Source of the DNA: an uncultured archaeon
Lineage (GTDB): Archaea; Asgardarchaeota; Lokiarchaeia; Sigyniarchaeales; SOKP01
Assembly (NCBI GenBank): GCA_964388035.1
Contig: CAYLZE010000124.1
Location: 1-13,850 of the forward strand
Length of the DNA: 13,850 bases
Direction: 5' to 3'
Positions 3,384 through 13,850 of the stretch are shown one piece after another; the stretch's first letter is position 1; the number at the start of each line of letters is the position of its first letter. The notes under the pieces are model-generated. The model worked only from the letters and a program-made list of their open reading frames with translations. It was not told where the DNA came from and ran no database searches. Both the position numbers and the translations under genes were made by a program.

Positions 3384-4964
3384 ATGTCAAAAGAATATAG
3401 AGAACCGAGTAAAGAAAACAATAAAAGTTCTGAAATAGAGCAATCTGATGAGCAAGAGGAGAAAGTAAAGGCTCCTACTACCCAAGAAGTGCAAGAAAAA
3501 CCCGTAATGATCAAAGCTGAAGCGTATAAGACAATCATATTGTACGCCAATAGATATGCAAATAATGCCATCCCCTCGAGTGAATGGAAAGAGATCTATG
3601 GAGTTCTAATAGGATATTCTAATGAAGATTTTGTTTATATTAATAGGGCTGAAGCATTAACTTATGGACATTCTACTGACGTGAAATTGGATGAAAAACA
3701 TTACATTTTTATTGATTCCATCGAACAAGAATTATTAGCGAATGGAAGTAATAATTATATTATTGGATGGTTTCATTCTCATCCTGGATTAAATTTGTTC
3801 TTCTCATACGTGGATATTATCAATCAGCTTGGTTTCCAAAACAATAATGAAGATGCAATAGGACTGGTCTATGATCATACCCTTTTAGGAAAGAAAAGAA
3901 AAGAAAAAATAGTTGATCAAGATGGGAAAGAACAGGAAATTACAAAATATGATACGGGATTCGAAATTTATAGGATTACCGACATAACCATGAGTGAAAA
4001 TGATCCTTCTTTTGATACTAATTATCATGAAGTAGAGTATTTCATGGAAGGTCTGAATAAATACTTTTTTGCAAACGTCATGGCAGAATTATCAGAATTG
4101 GTTTCCGCAGGCAAACCCTTACAATCTGCTTATGGTGAATCGTTAAATCAAAAATCTACTGAAACCATGGAAAGTACAACAAGGAAAAAAGATAATGATA
4201 TTCCCTATAACCTGTTAGAAGAAATCCCCCTCGACGAAGAGATTGTTTTTATAAATGAATCCATTAATTCCAGAAATGCTCAACCATATCAATTAGAAAA
4301 TGAGAGAATGATTGAACAAGCTGAAAGATTCGTAAATGATGGAATGAAAGCTTTTAAAAATAAAGACTCCATTACAGGAGTTGAATTATATAACAAGGGA
4401 ATTGATATTTATGAAAGTCTAAATAACTTTAATAAAGTTTTAGAATTATTACGAGATTTAGTCCAATATTGTATCAATAATAAGCATTTCATTTTAGCAG
4501 AAGAATTCTCAGATAAATTATTAGATTTAGCAGAACAGCAGGGTAATTTGTTCTATTTAGGAGAAGGTAATTATTACATTGGATACATTTTGTTGAAAAG
4601 AGGAGATAATGAACGACTAGAATTCGCATTGAAAAGTATTGAAAAAGCAGCAATCGACTTCGAAACAGATAAAGATTATGCATTTGCGGGTTTATGTTTC
4701 GAGAAAATTGGAATGATTTATCTAAATCGATTAAATATGACGGAAAATGCTTGTCTATTTTTTAGAGAAGCAATCCAAAATTACAACAAGGGGATTTTGA
4801 GAGGGCATTCTATGAGAACATCCTTATGGGGTAAACCAGAAATGCTAATTCAAAAAATTAAGGAATTAAGAGATGTAATGGAAGATTTAGTTCCAAAAAT
4901 AAAGAATTCTCCTTTAAAAGATAAAATTCTGCAAGATATGAAATCAATTCATTATAATTTTTAG
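3384..4964 (+). CDS. JAMM/MPN+ (Rpn11/CSN5-like) metalloisopeptidase domain fused to C-terminal TPR/SNAP-like helical repeats
   Basis: EIYGVLIG (catalytic Glu) and WFHSHPGLNLFFSYVD (HxH-x7-S-x2-D, 3768..3815). The C-terminal ~200 aa show TPR-like A/G/Y periodicity. Confidence 0.85.
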   Translation: MSKEYREPSKENNKSSEIEQSDEQEEKVKAPTTQEVQEKPVMIKAEAYKTIILYANRYANNAIPSSEWKEIYGVLIGYSNEDFVYINRAEALTYGHSTDVKLDEKHYIFIDSIEQELLANGSNNYIIGWFHSHPGLNLFFSYVDIINQLGFQNNNEDAIGLVYDHTLLGKKRKEKIVDQDGKEQEITKYDTGFEIYRITDITMSENDPSFDTNYHEVEYFMEGLNKYFFANVMAELSELVSAGKPLQSAYGESLNQKSTETMESTTRKKDNDIPYNLLEEIPLDEEIVFINESINSRNAQPYQLENERMIEQAERFVNDGMKAFKNKDSITGVELYNKGIDIYESLNNFNKVLELLRDLVQYCINNKHFILAEEFSDKLLDLAEQQGNLFYLGEGNYYIGYILLKRGDNERLEFALKSIEKAAIDFETDKDYAFAGLCFEKIGMIYLNRLNMTENACLFFREAIQNYNKGILRGHSMRTSLWGKPEMLIQKIKELRDVMEDLVPKIKNSPLKDKILQDMKSIHYNF

Positions 4965-6911: not shown

Positions 6912-7535
6912 ATGAAAATTACATTAATTAATGGATCTCCACGTAAAAATCGAAGTTGTAATTTCTTAATCGATCAAGCCATAAAAGGTCTCCAGATAGT
7001 CTCATCCGATTTCTTAACTAATAAAGTTCATATTACAGATTATAAGATTCTTCCTTGTAATGGATGTGACAAATGTTTAAGACCTCCTAATGAATGCCCC
7101 TTGGCAGAACAGGACGATACCAGAAAGATTGAAGAATTAATTTTAGGTAGTGATGCATTACTTATTGCTGCTCCCAATTATTTCGGTTCTGTAAACACTC
7201 AAATTAAAGTGCTAATAGATCGATCACGACCTTGGAAAATGAAAAATTATTTGCTTAAGGATGTAATCTTCGCCCCCATGGCAGCTACTGGTTTAAGAAA
7301 CGGAGGAGAAGGAGTTATATCAGATTTAATCAATTTTGCTCTCATTCAGGGAATGATAATTGTGGGAAATGCCTTGGGAAGCCCCGTGATGGAAGGAAAC
7401 ATTCCCATCACCAGCGTGCAAAAATATGAATTGAAACAATTTCTGGGAAAGGAAGAAAGCGATGAATTGGGAGGTTTGATTGCTTCTGATATTGGAAAGA
7501 GAGTAGGCGAACTTCTCATGAAATTTAAATCTTAG
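6912..7535 (+). CDS. Iron-sulfur flavoprotein (Isf) / NADPH-dependent FMN reductase family flavodoxin-like protein
   Basis: GSPRK FMN-phosphate loop, compact Cys motif CNGCDKC-x6-C, APNYFGSV, IDR, GLRNGG. Confidence 0.88.
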   Translation: MKITLINGSPRKNRSCNFLIDQAIKGLQIVSSDFLTNKVHITDYKILPCNGCDKCLRPPNECPLAEQDDTRKIEELILGSDALLIAAPNYFGSVNTQIKVLIDRSRPWKMKNYLLKDVIFAPMAATGLRNGGEGVISDLINFALIQGMIIVGNALGSPVMEGNIPITSVQKYELKQFLGKEESDELGGLIASDIGKRVGELLMKFKS

Positions 7536-7616
7536 TTTTTTCTCAATTCATTAAGATTTTTTCTTATTGTTATTACTTTACCGTTTTTCTTTATATATGG
7601 CACGCTTGTGCTTGCG

Positions 7617-7652
7617 AATCCCTAATCTTCTATCATTTAAAGATTAGATCAT
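7617..7652 (-). promoter_or_regulatory. Eukaryote-type SECIS element in the 3' UTR of the 7657..8040 gene
   Basis: Minus-strand RNA reads AUGA-UCUAAUCUU-UAAAUGAUAG-AAGAUUAGG-GAUU: an AUGA/GA tandem G-A core, a 9-bp stem (8 Watson-Crick pairs and 1 U-G) and AAA on the 5' side of the apical loop. It starts 4 nt after the UAA stop of a gene with an in-frame UGA. Confidence 0.85.
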
Positions 7653-7656
7653 TTTA

Positions 7657-8040
7657 TTATCCATATACATTTTGCTCTTTTTTAATAAATAACATTCCAA
7701 TTTGACCTTCACCCGTCTGCCCGATAGCGGCATCAATAATCACTATAGGTTTTTCCTGAAATTCATTCACGAGCTTTTTTTCCACATATACTTCGATATT
7801 CATGCTATCCTTAAAAAATTCGGCTATATTGGTATTTTCCCATAACATGAAATCAGAATCCTTATATACTTTCTTTTTTTCAATCAATTCAACGATATTG
7901 CCGCAGAAAGCCATGGTTCATGTGGAACTCGAGTGAAAAAATAATACCACTACTAATTTATCTAAATCGTGGGCATTTTCTTTTTTTCCTTGTTCACGAA
8001 TATAGTTCAATGCTTTTTGTGAAAAACTTAACTTGAACAT
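7657..8040 (-). CDS. Putative selenoprotein, 127 aa, HesB/IscA-like fold, Sec (UGA) at codon 41
   Basis: ATG at 8040 is in frame with the 85-aa track ORF: MFKLSFSQKALNYIREQGKKENAHDLDKLVVVLFFHSSST-U-TMAFCGN... The single in-frame TGA is at 7918..7920. AGGTG SD upstream and SECIS-like hairpin downstream. The N-terminal 'LSFSQKALNYI' and C-terminal 'IEVYVE...IIDA...GMLFI' resemble HesB/IscA patterns (fold call by eye). Confidence 0.8.
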
Positions 8041-8158: not shown

Positions 8159-10999
8159 ATGCAAACACAAAACATTAATGCTCATGCAATTGAAATTGAA
8201 GAAATTAAAGAAAAGTTGAATACTTCCTTAGAGCAAGGATTATCGGAAGAAGAAGCAAGCAAACGATTGGAAAAATTCGGTTTAAATGAAATCATACAAA
8301 AGAAAAAAATTTCCCCTTGGCAAATCCTTATTGATCAATTTAAAGATTTCTTGGTCTATTTACTATTGTTTGCAATAGCAGTCTCCATTGCCGTTGGTTT
8401 TTATGAAGTTTCTCGCGGTGGAGAACCATCTGAATTTTTGGATGCCTTGGTCATCTTTATCATCTTGGTTATCAATGCAGTGCTCGGATTTTATCAAGAA
8501 TTTAAAGCGGAGAAGTCATTAGAAAGCTTGAAAAAGATGGCCCCTCGCAATACTAAAGTGAAGAGAAATGGTACCGTCAAGGAGATCGCAGTTAAAAACA
8601 TAGTTCCCGGAGATTTGATCCAATTGGATGAGGGAGATAAAGTTCCCGCCGATGCGCGTCTAGTCATATCTTATTCATTATATATCGATGAAGCCATCCT
8701 CACGGGAGAATCCCAACCAGTACATAAAAAAAATGAAATACTCAAAGAAAGGACTCCTCTAGCTGACCGAAAAAACATGGTCTATAGCAATACCATAATT
8801 ACCCGTGGAAATGGATTGGCTATAATTATTGATACAGGAATGAATACAGAAATTGGGAAAATAGCAGAAAAAATTCAAGAAGAAGAACCCGAACCCAGCC
8901 CTTTTCAAATTGAAGTCAACCGCTTTGGAAAACTGTTAGGAAAAATCATATTAGTCATCTGTTTTGCCGTATTTTTTATCGAATTTTTCATTATTATAGG
9001 CACGGAAGGAATTGTCTTCGGGGAAACTGAAATCGAGGAAATTGTGGGTGCGTTAACCATCTCAATTAGTTTGGCTGTTTCCGCGGTACCTGAGGGATTA
9101 GTTGTGGTGATCACGGTGGTCATGAGTATTGGGATGCGCAAAATGGCAAGTAAAAATGCTCTGGTAAAAACTCTCACTGCTGTAGAAACTTTAGGAAGAG
9201 TAAATGTTATATGTTCGGATAAAACGGGAACTTTAACGCGAAATGAAATGACGGTGGTTAAAATTTTTCTCGGAGGCAAAGAAAATGACGTGGAAGGCGT
9301 TGGCTATAAAATACAAGGAAAAATTGTCGATGGCTCAGGTAATCCCGTGGAAGTTACGCCCGATCTGAAAAAATTCTTACAAGTGGCCATGTATTGCAAC
9401 AATGCGAGCGTGAACGTTAAAAGTGATGGAATTAACACGGATGTGGTGGGAGATCCTACTGAGGTTTGTTTAAAAATTCTCGCACTTAAAATGAAAATTG
9501 ACTCAAAAATCGAAAAATTAAATGAAATTCCGTTCAATTCTGATAGAAAGATGATGTCGGTGGCATTAAAAGTCGATGGAAAGCTTTTTTCCTTTATTAA
9601 AGGCGCCCCCGATGTCCTCCTAAATCATGCCGCAAAAGGATTGTTAAATGGTGAAGAAAAGCCAATAAATGAGATAAAAGATGTTATTCACCAGAAGAAT
9701 GAAGAGTTAGGCAAAAAAGCATTAAGAGTCTTGGGATTAGCTTATAAACCTTTAGCAGAAGGGTATAACAAGGAAGATTTAGAAACAGACTACACTTATC
9801 TCGGCTTAGTAGGAATTATCGATCCCGCACGGGACGAGGTCAAGGATTCCATAAAAGAAGCACGAAATGCGGGAATTAGAACTATCATGATCACGGGAGA
9901 TCATAAAGTAACCGCCATTGCCATAGCAAAAGAAATTGGATTAACAGATAATGATAGTGCTATTACGGGAGTTGAATTAGAAGATATGACTGATGATGAA
10001 CTAAAAAGAAGACTGGAAAACACGGATGTTTTTGCCCGTGTCACTTCCGATCATAAACTTCGTATCTTGAAAGTACTTAAATCCCAGGAATATGTCGTTT
10101 CAATGACGGGAGATGGAGTAAATGATGCTCCCGCGGTAAAGGGTGCTAGTGTTGGAGTTGCAATGGGTTTAAAAGGGACAGAAGTGACCCAAGAGGCAGC
10201 AGACATGATTCTAATAGATGATAATTATGCTACGATCGTCAATGCTATCGAAGAAGGACGCGGGATTTTCGAAACAACCAAGAATTTTTTCCGATACATG
10301 CTAAGTGCAAATTTTGATGAAATTGCGTTAATTTTAGTAGCATATATTTTACTTAAAGTGGCGGCAAACATATATCTGGCACAGCCGCTCGTCCCAATTC
10401 AGATTTTATGGCTTAACATTGCGACTGACGGAATACCGGCTATGGTACTTGGTCTTACCCCCACTGATCGCGATGTAATGAAGTTAAAACCCCGAAAAGG
10501 GTTTAACATGATTTCGGATATAAAAAATGCAATAATTTTTGCAGCAACGTTTGCCGCGATAACCAGTATTGCATTATATATTTTTCTCTGGTCAACTTTA
10601 ATTCCTGCTTGGACTGCCCTTGATCCTCGACTAATAAATGGCACGGAAATTTTTGGAATCACGTATTCAGCATTAGAGTATAAAATAGCACTCACTCAAT
10701 CGATCATTTTTACTAACGTGGTCTTTTTCGAACTATTTTTTGTTTTCTCTTGTACTTCAGAAACCAAACCAATGTGGTTATTTCCAAACAAGAATTTATT
10801 CTGGGCTACAGGTATATCCTTCGGATTACACTTTTTAATTCTTTTTACTCCGCTGGGGATAGCATTCCACGCGATTCCCTTAGACCAATGGTATTATTGG
10901 GTAGCCGTCCTTCTTGCTTCTTTTGGGATCTTGCCTGCCGATGAATTAAGAAAATATTTGATTCGACGTAAACGACGAGCAAACGAGCCATTACTATAA
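8159..10999 (+). CDS. P-type cation-transporting ATPase, P2A (SERCA-like Ca2+/Mn2+), copy 1
   Basis: TGES, AVPEGL (TM4), CSDKTGTLT phosphorylation site (9218..9232), KGAP, MITGD, MTGDGVNDAP, TM5 SANFDE, TM6 QILWLNIATDG, TM8 Glu (VFFEL). Confidence 0.96.
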   Translation: MQTQNINAHAIEIEEIKEKLNTSLEQGLSEEEASKRLEKFGLNEIIQKKKISPWQILIDQFKDFLVYLLLFAIAVSIAVGFYEVSRGGEPSEFLDALVIFIILVINAVLGFYQEFKAEKSLESLKKMAPRNTKVKRNGTVKEIAVKNIVPGDLIQLDEGDKVPADARLVISYSLYIDEAILTGESQPVHKKNEILKERTPLADRKNMVYSNTIITRGNGLAIIIDTGMNTEIGKIAEKIQEEEPEPSPFQIEVNRFGKLLGKIILVICFAVFFIEFFIIIGTEGIVFGETEIEEIVGALTISISLAVSAVPEGLVVVITVVMSIGMRKMASKNALVKTLTAVETLGRVNVICSDKTGTLTRNEMTVVKIFLGGKENDVEGVGYKIQGKIVDGSGNPVEVTPDLKKFLQVAMYCNNASVNVKSDGINTDVVGDPTEVCLKILALKMKIDSKIEKLNEIPFNSDRKMMSVALKVDGKLFSFIKGAPDVLLNHAAKGLLNGEEKPINEIKDVIHQKNEELGKKALRVLGLAYKPLAEGYNKEDLETDYTYLGLVGIIDPARDEVKDSIKEARNAGIRTIMITGDHKVTAIAIAKEIGLTDNDSAITGVELEDMTDDELKRRLENTDVFARVTSDHKLRILKVLKSQEYVVSMTGDGVNDAPAVKGASVGVAMGLKGTEVTQEAADMILIDDNYATIVNAIEEGRGIFETTKNFFRYMLSANFDEIALILVAYILLKVAANIYLAQPLVPIQILWLNIATDGIPAMVLGLTPTDRDVMKLKPRKGFNMISDIKNAIIFAATFAAITSIALYIFLWSTLIPAWTALDPRLINGTEIFGITYSALEYKIALTQSIIFTNVVFFELFFVFSCTSETKPMWLFPNKNLFWATGISFGLHFLILFTPLGIAFHAIPLDQWYYWVAVLLASFGILPADELRKYLIRRKRRANEPLL

Positions 11000-11429: not shown

Positions 11430-13850
11430 ATGAATAGAATAAAATCAGAACCGTATTACTCAACAATCGAAAATGTCAGAGAACTATTATCCACATCAAT
11501 AAAAGACGGATTGAGAGAAGATGAGGCAGTTGCTAGATTGAAAAAATTCGGACTAAATGAGTTAATACAAACAAGGAAAATTTCTGCATTAAAGATCTTT
11601 CTTTCTCAATTCAAAGATTTTTTAATTTACTTACTATTCGCCGCAATCCTATTTTCTTTTTTCGTGGGACTTTTCGAACTAATTATGGGAAATTACCCTT
11701 CTGAATTCTTGGATGCTATAGTAATATTTATAATATTAATAATTAACGCAATTTTAGGATTTTATCAAGAATTTAAAGCTGAAAAAGCTCTTGAAAGTTT
11801 AAAAAAAATGGCACCTCGCAATGCTAAGGTTAAACGAAATGGCATTGTTAAACAAATTGAGGTTAAAAATGTGGTACCGGGAGATTTAATCATGCTAGAC
11901 GAGGGAGATAAAATTCCTGCAGACGCTCGCCTGATAAAAGCATTTTCGCTTTACGTGGATGAGGCATTGTTAACGGGAGAATCACAGCCAGTGCTTAAAA
12001 ATACAGATGTTTTAGAGAAAAATAAACCTTTAGCAGATAGAAAGAACATGGTATATAGTAATACTATTATTACCCGAGGAAACGGGATGGCAATCGTGAC
12101 GGATACCGGAATGACTACTGAAATAGGAAAAATAGCTGAAAAAATTCAAGAAGTAGAACCCGAACCCAGCCCTTTCCAAAAAGAAGTTGATCGCTTTGGA
12201 AAGATATTAGGAAAAATCATTATAATTGTATGTATAATCTTGTTTATCATTGAAGTTGTACTCGTATTGGTCTTTAGCGGCGAAATGACACAAGCAGAAA
12301 TTTTAGAAGAAATTATTAATGCTATTACTGTCGCTATTAGTTTAGCCGTGTCTGCTGTACCTGAAGGCTTGGTAGTGGTGATCACGGTGGTCATGAGTAT
12401 TGGGATGCGAAAAATGGCAGAAAGAAATGCACTCGTTAAAACTTTAACAGCAGTAGAGACCTTAGGAAGAATTAATATTATTTGCTCGGACAAAACGGGA
12501 ACTCTAACGCGAAATGAAATGACGGTGGTTAAAATCTATCTGGGTGGCAAGGAATATCTCGTGGAAGGAGTTGGCTATAAAATTGAAGGAAGAATTCTTA
12601 GTTCTAATGGAGAACCTATCGAGATGAATCCATACTTGAAAAAATTCCTACAAGTAGGAATGTACTGTAATAATGCAAGTGTAAACGTTAAGGAAGATGG
12701 GTTTAGCACGGATGTCGTAGGAGATCCAACAGAAATATGCCTGAAAATTTTAGCATTAAAAATGAATATAAATTCTGAAGTAGAAAAGCTCGAAGAGATT
12801 CCTTTCAATTCTGATAGAAAGATGATGTCCGTGGTTGTTAGAATTGATGGAAATCTATATTCTTTCATTAAAGGTGCGCCCGATGTATTATTAAAAAATG
12901 CTAAAAACGGTATTTTAAACGGAGAGGAAAAATCCATTGATCAAGTGAAAGATGAAATTTCCAAAGTCAATGAGAAATTTGGCAGAGAAGCATTGAGGGT
13001 GTTGGGCCTAGCATACAAACCCTTAAATGAGGAATATAATAAAGAAGATTTAGAAAAAGACTATACTTACCTTGGGTTAGCAGGAATCATCGATCCTGCC
13101 CGCGATGAAGTGAAAGATTCTATTACACAAGCAAGAATGGCAGGGATTAGAACCATCATGATCACGGGAGATCATAAAATAACAGCCATAGCAATTGCGA
13201 AGGAAATTGGACTTACTGATAATGATAATGCTATTACGGGGGTCGAACTAGATGAAATAAATGACGATGAATTAACAAAAAAAGTAAATAATACCAATGT
13301 TTTTGCACGGGTGACATCCGATCATAAACTACGCATCCTTAAGGTTCTTAAATCTCAAGAAAATGTAGTATCCATGACGGGAGACGGTGTAAATGATGCT
13401 CCCGCCGTGAAAGGAGCAAATGTCGGTGTTGCCATGGGAATTAATGGTACCGAAGTTACCCAAGAGGCAGCAGACATGATCCTAATCGATGATAATTATG
13501 CTACGATAGTCAATGCTATCGAAGAAGGACGCGGGATTTTCGAAACAACCAAGAATTTTTTCCGATACATGTTAAGCGTTAATTTTGCAGAAATTGTTCT
13601 AATTCTTTTTGCTTGGATCTTAATTAAAATCGTTCCTTCTGTTTATCTGGCACAACCTCTTGAGCCTATCCAGATTCTATGGCTTAATATTGCTACTGAT
13701 GGAATACCTGCTATGGTACTTGGTCTTACACCTACTGATCGCGATGTAATGAAGTTTAAACCTAGAAAAGGCTTTAACATGATATCTGACATTAGAAATG
13801 CAATCATTTTTGCGGCGATAATAAATGCTCTAACTGATATTCTCTTATAT
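11430..13850 (+). CDS. P-type cation-transporting ATPase, P2A, copy 2 (tandem paralog; 3' end beyond the window)
   Basis: Absent from the ORF track, presumably because no stop falls in the window. Starts MNRIKSEPYYSTIENV...; GGAG SD at 11416..11419; TGES, AVPEGL, CSDKTGT (12489..12503), GDGVNDAP, TM5 SVNFAE, TM6 QILWLNIATDG. Collinear with copy 1 at an offset of 3271 nt. Confidence 0.95.
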   Translation, partial: MNRIKSEPYYSTIENVRELLSTSIKDGLREDEAVARLKKFGLNELIQTRKISALKIFLSQFKDFLIYLLFAAILFSFFVGLFELIMGNYPSEFLDAIVIFIILIINAILGFYQEFKAEKALESLKKMAPRNAKVKRNGIVKQIEVKNVVPGDLIMLDEGDKIPADARLIKAFSLYVDEALLTGESQPVLKNTDVLEKNKPLADRKNMVYSNTIITRGNGMAIVTDTGMTTEIGKIAEKIQEVEPEPSPFQKEVDRFGKILGKIIIIVCIILFIIEVVLVLVFSGEMTQAEILEEIINAITVAISLAVSAVPEGLVVVITVVMSIGMRKMAERNALVKTLTAVETLGRINIICSDKTGTLTRNEMTVVKIYLGGKEYLVEGVGYKIEGRILSSNGEPIEMNPYLKKFLQVGMYCNNASVNVKEDGFSTDVVGDPTEICLKILALKMNINSEVEKLEEIPFNSDRKMMSVVVRIDGNLYSFIKGAPDVLLKNAKNGILNGEEKSIDQVKDEISKVNEKFGREALRVLGLAYKPLNEEYNKEDLEKDYTYLGLAGIIDPARDEVKDSITQARMAGIRTIMITGDHKITAIAIAKEIGLTDNDNAITGVELDEINDDELTKKVNNTNVFARVTSDHKLRILKVLKSQENVVSMTGDGVNDAPAVKGANVGVAMGINGTEVTQEAADMILIDDNYATIVNAIEEGRGIFETTKNFFRYMLSVNFAEIVLILFAWILIKIVPSVYLAQPLEPIQILWLNIATDGIPAMVLGLTPTDRDVMKFKPRKGFNMISDIRNAIIFAAIINALTDILLY

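Follow-up and report, generated by a model that had tools for sequence, protein, structure and literature searches.

The question

Beyond the stop codon of a minus-strand gene of an Asgard archaeon, whose 127 codons (8040-7657) include a single in-frame UGA, stands a hairpin. The question raised by this locus is whether the hairpin is the signal by which the UGA would be read as selenocysteine (Sec, U) and, if so, to which class of SECIS elements it belongs. The window, i.e., the whole stretch of DNA that was analysed (13,850 nucleotides), corresponds to the whole of contig C124 from a genome (G000) of 5.47 Mb with 33% G+C. An earlier note on this DNA had described the hairpin as a SECIS of eukaryotic architecture located beside a UGA-containing gene. 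From the sequence comparisons presented below, the complete element (7669-7592, minus strand) is very probably a lokiSECIS (Asgard type I) belonging to the 127-codon gene.

The hairpin and its host gene

Read on the minus strand, the core hairpin (7652-7617) consists of AUGA, a 9-bp stem, a 10-nt loop, the return strand of the stem and a final GAUU. The AUGA begins 4 nt downstream of the UAA stop codon (7659-7657) and is separated by 265 nt from the in-frame UGA (7920-7918). The stem is devoid of any mismatch, eight of its nine pairs being of the Watson-Crick type and the ninth, located at the base, a U.G pair. The same hairpin is returned by RNAfold within a larger fold of -18.8 kcal/mol (z = -3.25 versus shuffles), and the coordinates and the description originally proposed (AUGA 4 nt past UAA, an upper helix, AAA in the loop, GAUU) are exact in the sequence. 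The loop position preceding the adenines is occupied by U here, instead of A. The features of the locus, all on the minus strand, are the following:

7657..8040, minus strand: putative selenoprotein gene of 127 codons, ATG 8040-8038, UAA 7659-7657; frame open when TGA is translated as U
7918..7920, minus strand: in-frame UGA, presumed Sec codon; same motif in the translated orthologs, Cys aligned there in a tandem paralog
7661..7669, minus strand: Helix I, 5' strand, UGUAUAUGG, contributed by the final codons; MFE fold and alignment columns
7653..7655, minus strand: two A residues pairing with UU 7618-7617 (short C-stem; column pairs 29-68 and 28-69), then A 7653, first bulge nucleotide of the K-turn-like core
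7649..7652, minus strand: AUGA core, 5' half of the G.A/A.G tandem; read directly, conserved in the 49 aligned orthologs
7640..7648, minus strand: Helix II, 5' strand (9 nt); RNAalifold, with compensatory changes in 9/9 pairs and 96.1% of cells paired
7630..7639, minus strand: apical loop of 10 nt, UAAAUGAUAG, with AAA at positions 2-4 and AG at the end
7621..7629, minus strand: Helix II, 3' strand; RNAalifold and covariation
7617..7620, minus strand: GA (7620-7619), 3' half of the core, then UU (7618-7617), which completes the C-stem; both nucleotides of GA and the U after them invariant in 49/49
7603..7616, minus strand: third arm: CGC and GCG strands enclosing an 8-nt loop, a small hairpin borne by the junction on its 3' side; MFE fold
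7592..7600, minus strand: Helix I, 3' strand, CCAUAUAUA; MFE fold, alignment and single-sequence folds

The host protein, which matches TIGR01911 weakly (E 1.2e-3), appears from this profile to be a distant HesB/IscA-like protein. Its relatives in public databases are held exclusively as 85-88 aa forms named "hypothetical protein", two of them labelled "Promethearchaeota archaeon". The Asgard selenoprotein families listed in PMC11227280 comprise SelD, FrhA, HdrA, FrhD, a Prx-like and a DsbA-like family, to which PMC13188914 adds a homologue of the AhpF N-terminal domain. The family of the host gene is absent from the Asgard selenoprotein lists of both PMC11227280 and the 2026 review PMC13188914, and "HesB" is not mentioned in PMC11227280 or its supplements.

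Comparison with known SECIS elements and K-turns

The lokiSECIS was defined by an AUGA preceding a 9-bp stem, an A-rich start of the loop, a loop ending in AG, a GA after the stem and a position adjoining the end of the coding sequence (PMC4989117). The "eSECIS-like" type I model of Huang, Xiao and Zhang 2024 (PMC11227280) is another name for this class of Mariotti et al. 2016 (PMC4989117). In this class, AUGA is rarely replaced by GUGA, the stem measures 9 bp (7-15 bp with at most two mismatches in the general model), the loop comprises 8-20 nt (11 in the first-described elements) with a last G usually preceded by A, and either GA or AA follows the stem. Every item of this description of sequence and position is found in the present element, which occurs a few nucleotides past the stop codon of a UGA-containing gene, in a genome endowed with Sec-decoding genes (SelD, SepSecS, EFSec-like) and with VhuD genes bearing the same element. 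The differences concern the length of the loop, which is 10 nt instead of 11 and still within the general 8-20 nt model, and the host family, a distant HesB/IscA-like one located outside the listed Asgard families. The closeness to the stop codon, which had been counted as a weak point, is in fact the norm for lokiSECIS elements (PMC4989117).

With the eukaryotic SECIS of form 1 (RF00031), the element shares a location in the 3' UTR from which it would act remotely on a UGA located upstream, the non-Watson-Crick AUGA/GA core and the unpaired apical adenines. It differs by a shorter Helix II (9 bp), by its position adjoining the stop codon, by a side hairpin inserted in the internal loop and by the lack of any Rfam match: the Rfam SECIS models matched neither the window as a whole nor the 141 nt of 7560-7700, even with E <= 10 as the cut-off. 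This is consistent with the literature, in which SECISearch3 is described as failing on Loki elements. The protein side differs as well: eukaryotes use SBP2, which published searches did not find in Asgard archaea (PMC4989117, PMC11227280), and the present genome offers only two small L7Ae-domain ORFs. The "eukaryotic SECIS architecture" of the earlier note applies to the core, to the adenines of the apical loop and to the location in the 3' UTR; because there is no Rfam SECIS match and the stem is of the short, 9-bp Loki form, the element is classified as a lokiSECIS, not as a member of the eukaryotic family.

The methanococcal (euryarchaeal) SECIS is similarly located in the 3' UTR, near the stop codon, but is built differently, since the element described here possesses neither the GAA_A asymmetric bulge nor the G-C clamps, and has an A-U rich stem. 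A Loki element did not function when tested in Methanococcus maripaludis (PMC11881835).

In its sequence pattern, the core also resembles a standard K-turn of the Kt-7 or box C/D type, as bound by archaeal L7Ae, in combining a 3-nt bulge (A-A-U), tandem G.A and A.G pairs and a short Watson-Crick stem on the opposite side. It departs from it by a C-stem of only 2 bp which leads into a three-way junction. A box C/D sRNA was considered and rejected: the element is devoid of guide and C'/D' features, no snoRNA family of Rfam matches at its position (window and 7560-7700), and it is tied to UGA genes.

Elements of the same type and Sec pathway in the genome

A pattern scan combined with a covariance model identified six canonical lokiSECIS elements in the genome, all made of AUGA, 9 bp, an 11-nt loop of the form AAAAAnnnnAG, 9 bp, and GA or AA. 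Their distance from the preceding stop codon is 0-15 nt, the genes concerned being four VhuD/FrhD genes (C4, C32, C45, C57) and two other UGA genes (C9, C81). Similar hairpins are thus found behind known selenoprotein genes of the same genome, namely the four VhuD genes, as the earlier note had suggested to check.

With respect to the decoding machinery, the genome contains a SelD gene with an in-frame TGA, a SepSecS gene (385 bits), an EFSec-like gene (237 bits, the candidate located on contig C59), a weak match to PSTK, and the two small L7Ae-domain ORFs of 132 and 124 aa (contigs C86 and C67). Among the 150 of 234 tRNA(Sec) candidates that were scored with RF01852, none matched, and aragorn called only 8 tRNAs, without a tRNA(Sec), in the 5.47-Mb assembly, which is rated 96.7% complete; the tRNA genes may contain introns or be largely unassembled. 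The MFE structure of the region 3' of SelD, folded as a single sequence (z = -0.56), contains no clear element of type II.

Chance level and model searches

The frequency of such hairpins by chance was estimated from ten genomes simulated with a first-order Markov model. A bare descriptor (ATGA, 9 perfect pairs, a loop of 10-11 nt, GA) occurs 6 times in the 5.47-Mb genome versus a mean of 2.2 in the simulated ones. When an A-rich start of the loop and a loop ending in AG are added, 4 real matches persist versus 0 in all ten simulations, and the three strict matches other than the present one are located downstream of two VhuD genes and of a third gene with in-frame UGAs. The expectation derived from the simulated genomes amounts to approximately 2e-5 within 100 nt on one strand.

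A covariance model was also trained on four lokiSECIS elements of the same genome, the candidate being excluded. Among its matches in the window, the candidate comes out on top (20.8 bits, E 0.004), with a score which alone is not significant genome-wide. The model was limited to four sequences, MAFFT having misplaced one VhuD element in two alignments. Used genome-wide, it scored 150 of 10,559 candidates and missed both the present element and the bona fide VhuD element of contig C4, so that this search provides no ranking. The second-best match of the model in the window (4338-4377, plus strand, 16.8 bits) starts with GGAAUGA, has a mismatched stem and a loop shorter than that of the model, and lies inside the JAB/MPN-domain ORF 3384-4964; it is probably due to chance.

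Conservation and covariation in orthologs

Orthologs were sought in six frames across 161 genomes of the class: 52 of the 134 genomes belonging to the same family have one, versus 0 of the 26 genomes of other families. Each of the 52 orthologs contains one in-frame TGA and aligns over residues 1-127, and in those translated, U occurs within the same motif. The downstream element was located in 50 orthologs, 49 of which were aligned, G148 being left out due to a 50-nt insertion in the apical loop.

In all 49 aligned elements, the A and U of AUGA, one adenine of the loop, the last G of the loop, the GA and the U that follows it are invariant, and the G and A of AUGA together with two further loop adenines are nearly so. 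Conservation of the core in UGA-containing orthologs, on which the earlier reading could have foundered, is observed, GA being kept in 49/49 and AUGA in 45/49 of them. The exceptions are AUGU in three related genomes (G117, G134, G115) and AUAA in G121, all with UGA, GA and stem maintained; they could represent tolerated variants of the core, decaying genes or assembly errors. The loop measures 11 nt in the orthologs, except for 12 nt in G145, and the 10-nt loop is peculiar to the genome under study.

From the 49 elements, RNAalifold recovers exactly the 9-bp stem, with compensatory changes in all nine pairs (9/9) and 96.1% of the Helix II cells paired. For the whole drawn structure, 88.1% of the cells are paired, a value that falls to 39-51% once the 3' partners are displaced by 1-3 columns, and none of 500 shuffles reached the observed pairing measures. 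About 32 G.U cells of Helix II would read as A.C mismatches on the opposite strand; the structure has therefore been selected on the strand of the gene.

In the SECIS of the G148 ortholog (contig C3), a 50-nt apical region which ends with an A-rich stretch followed by AG takes the place of the 11-nt loop. This region may correspond to a type II-like derivative or to a small insertion.

Tandem paralogs as a natural control

In two genomes (G052, C334:32300-34000; G047, C10:78100-79800, minus strand), the ortholog belongs to a tandem cluster of three paralogs, a Cys gene flanked by two U genes. Each of the two outer paralogs, which contain the UGA, is followed within 20 nt by an element made of AUGA, 9 bp, a loop of 11-12 nt, 9 bp and GA. 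The middle paralog exhibits Cys exactly at the aligned U position, and no such hairpin occurs downstream of it, even under a loose descriptor.

Taken together with the elements of the same genome and with the conservation and covariation in orthologs, this paralog control supports the identification of a eukaryote-like SECIS next to the UGA gene.

Alternative explanations

Among the other explanations that deserve attention, a conserved 3'-UTR K-turn hairpin with another job, e.g., an L7Ae-binding regulatory element, an mRNA-stabilising structure or a signal for 3'-end processing, with a UGA recoded otherwise or not at all, is improbable but the most serious of them. The core is a generic K-turn motif, two L7Ae-domain genes occur in the genome, and no lokiSECIS has so far been linked to Sec insertion by experiment (PMC11881835). 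Such a job would nevertheless leave unaccounted for the repeated association of the architecture with in-frame UGAs: it recurs in the same genome after UGA genes including the known selenoprotein VhuD, it accompanies the UGA paralogs and is missing after the Cys paralog of the same cluster, and UGA and element have been kept together in the orthologs found.

A transcription terminator, or a hairpin marking the boundary between the minus-strand gene and the convergent FMN-reductase gene (6912-7535), had been named from the start as the alternative to be considered, since the hairpin occupies a 121-nt gap between two convergent genes and can form on both strands. Its probability is very small. 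No terminator-like pattern matches around the hairpin on either strand; on the minus strand no U-run follows it, and on the plus strand the T-runs precede it. Moreover, the G.U pairs of the orthologs fit the minus strand only, and a terminator would not be expected to conserve AUGA, GA and the loop adenines. A fortuitous AT-rich hairpin flanked by AUGA and GA is less credible still: although the genome has 33% G+C and the bare descriptor is encountered about twice per simulated genome, the expectation calculated above for 100 nt on one strand is low, and the compensatory changes accumulated in 49 orthologs refute it in practice.

Lower helix, third arm and K-turn layout

The lower helix of the element had been judged weak in the earlier note, and the RNAfold MFE structure corrects this view, as it contains a Helix I of 9 bp formed by 7669-7661 with 7600-7592. 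It had been overlooked because the small hairpin 7616-7603 separates the GA from the 3' strand of the helix. In the 49 orthologs, the corresponding columns (12-19 with 88-89 and 101-106) are paired in 72-86% of the cells and exhibit U-A to C-G exchanges, which are largely confined to one clade. Single-sequence folds display at least 4 bp of Helix I in 33 of the 49 orthologs, and the helix is not evident in about a third of them; these constrained folds are noisy, as lower helix and third arm compete in the MFE.

The third arm has a homologous counterpart in the orthologs, where it is paired at 93.3% with compensatory changes in 3 of 4 pairs. A small hairpin similarly occurs 2-3 nt past the GA or AA in all six of the other lokiSECIS elements of the genome (C4, C32, C45, C57, C9, C81); these hairpins are short and G+C-rich, with UGC or AGC in most of the loops, and their single-sequence energies are individually not significant.

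Between these two arms, the A-U pairs 7655-7654/7618-7617 flank a 3-nt bulge located ahead of the G.A tandem, according to the layout of a K-turn. In the alignment, pair 29-68 of this C-stem is A-U in 49/49 orthologs; at pair 28-69, 34 have A-U and 6 have U-A. This sequence pattern fits a K-turn, from which we infer that the core would adopt the corresponding three-dimensional fold. The nucleotide that precedes the 3-nt bulge pairs with the one that follows GA, as G-C in four of the lokiSECIS elements of the genome and as A-U here.

The arrangement of the lower helix, the core with its upper helix and the third arm in a three-way junction is thus supported for this element. Both the lower helix, to which the last codons contribute, and the third side hairpin lie outside the published lokiSECIS models (PMC4989117, PMC11227280). 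It is tempting, albeit speculative and rather doubtful, to extend the scheme to Loki-type SECIS elements in general, which would then be three-way junctions composed of a lower helix, an upper helix carried by a K-turn, and a side hairpin that is conserved and rich in G+C. In such a scheme, the third arm could serve as a recognition site standing in for the missing SBP2, e.g., as the docking point of the Sec elongation factor or of a protein specific to Loki archaea, the K-turn being held by L7Ae, and the lower helix would, in the present gene, also sequester the last codons and the stop codon.

Possible mode of action and significance

As a working model, AUGA and GA would come together below the 9-bp helix in a tandem of sheared G.A pairs resembling that of a K-turn, and the loop of this helix would present the conserved adenines and the terminal G. 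The lower helix, borrowed from the last codons, and the third hairpin would close the core into a three-way junction. A factor recognizing the shape of the core, for which L7Ae is a guess, would act together with the Sec-specific elongation factor, possibly the product of the candidate gene on contig C59. Both would deliver Sec-tRNA(Sec) to the ribosome paused at UGA 7920-7918, which would be read as selenocysteine, and the UAA adjoining the element would be read as a stop.

Owing to the presence of the element, UGA 7920-7918 is therefore presumably readable as selenocysteine, and a protein of 127 residues is restored from what otherwise appears as a fragment of 85-88 residues. The signal itself is of a type already known, the lokiSECIS, and it is the gene family which is new with respect to the lists of PMC11227280 and PMC13188914. 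Since the archaeal selenoproteome is currently put at 11 families (PMC13188914), it would be extended by this IscA/HesB-like family, distributed in 52 of the 134 genomes of one Asgard family. In addition, the alignment of 49 sequences offers an unusually clean covariation for a lokiSECIS, and shows a lower helix and a third arm beyond the published hairpin model, two targets for understanding how a eukaryote-like SECIS can be decoded by Asgard archaea in the absence of SBP2. The interest of the locus resides mainly in a selenoprotein family validated by its element and in the junction architecture documented for the latter.

Other genes of the genome and of the window

Two of the canonical lokiSECIS elements of the genome (C9:106082-106116 and C81:2544-2578) are located 10-12 nt past the stop codons of genes with several UGAs. 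The read-through frames of these genes comprise about 155-175 codons and contain two or three consecutive or nearly consecutive UGAs (SSSUGUUAK, HADUUADN), and their products may be multi-Sec proteins, absent from the lists of PMC11227280 and PMC13188914.

The neighbours of the host gene in the window all look ordinary. Besides the convergent FMN-reductase gene on the plus strand, they include, on the same strand, the JAB/MPN-domain protein 3384-4964, whose C-terminal half is helical, and two P-type cation ATPases arranged in tandem (8159-10999 and 11430-13850), and are accompanied by genes for a radical SAM protein, a family III CoA-transferase, a metallophosphoesterase and a polyprenyl synthetase.
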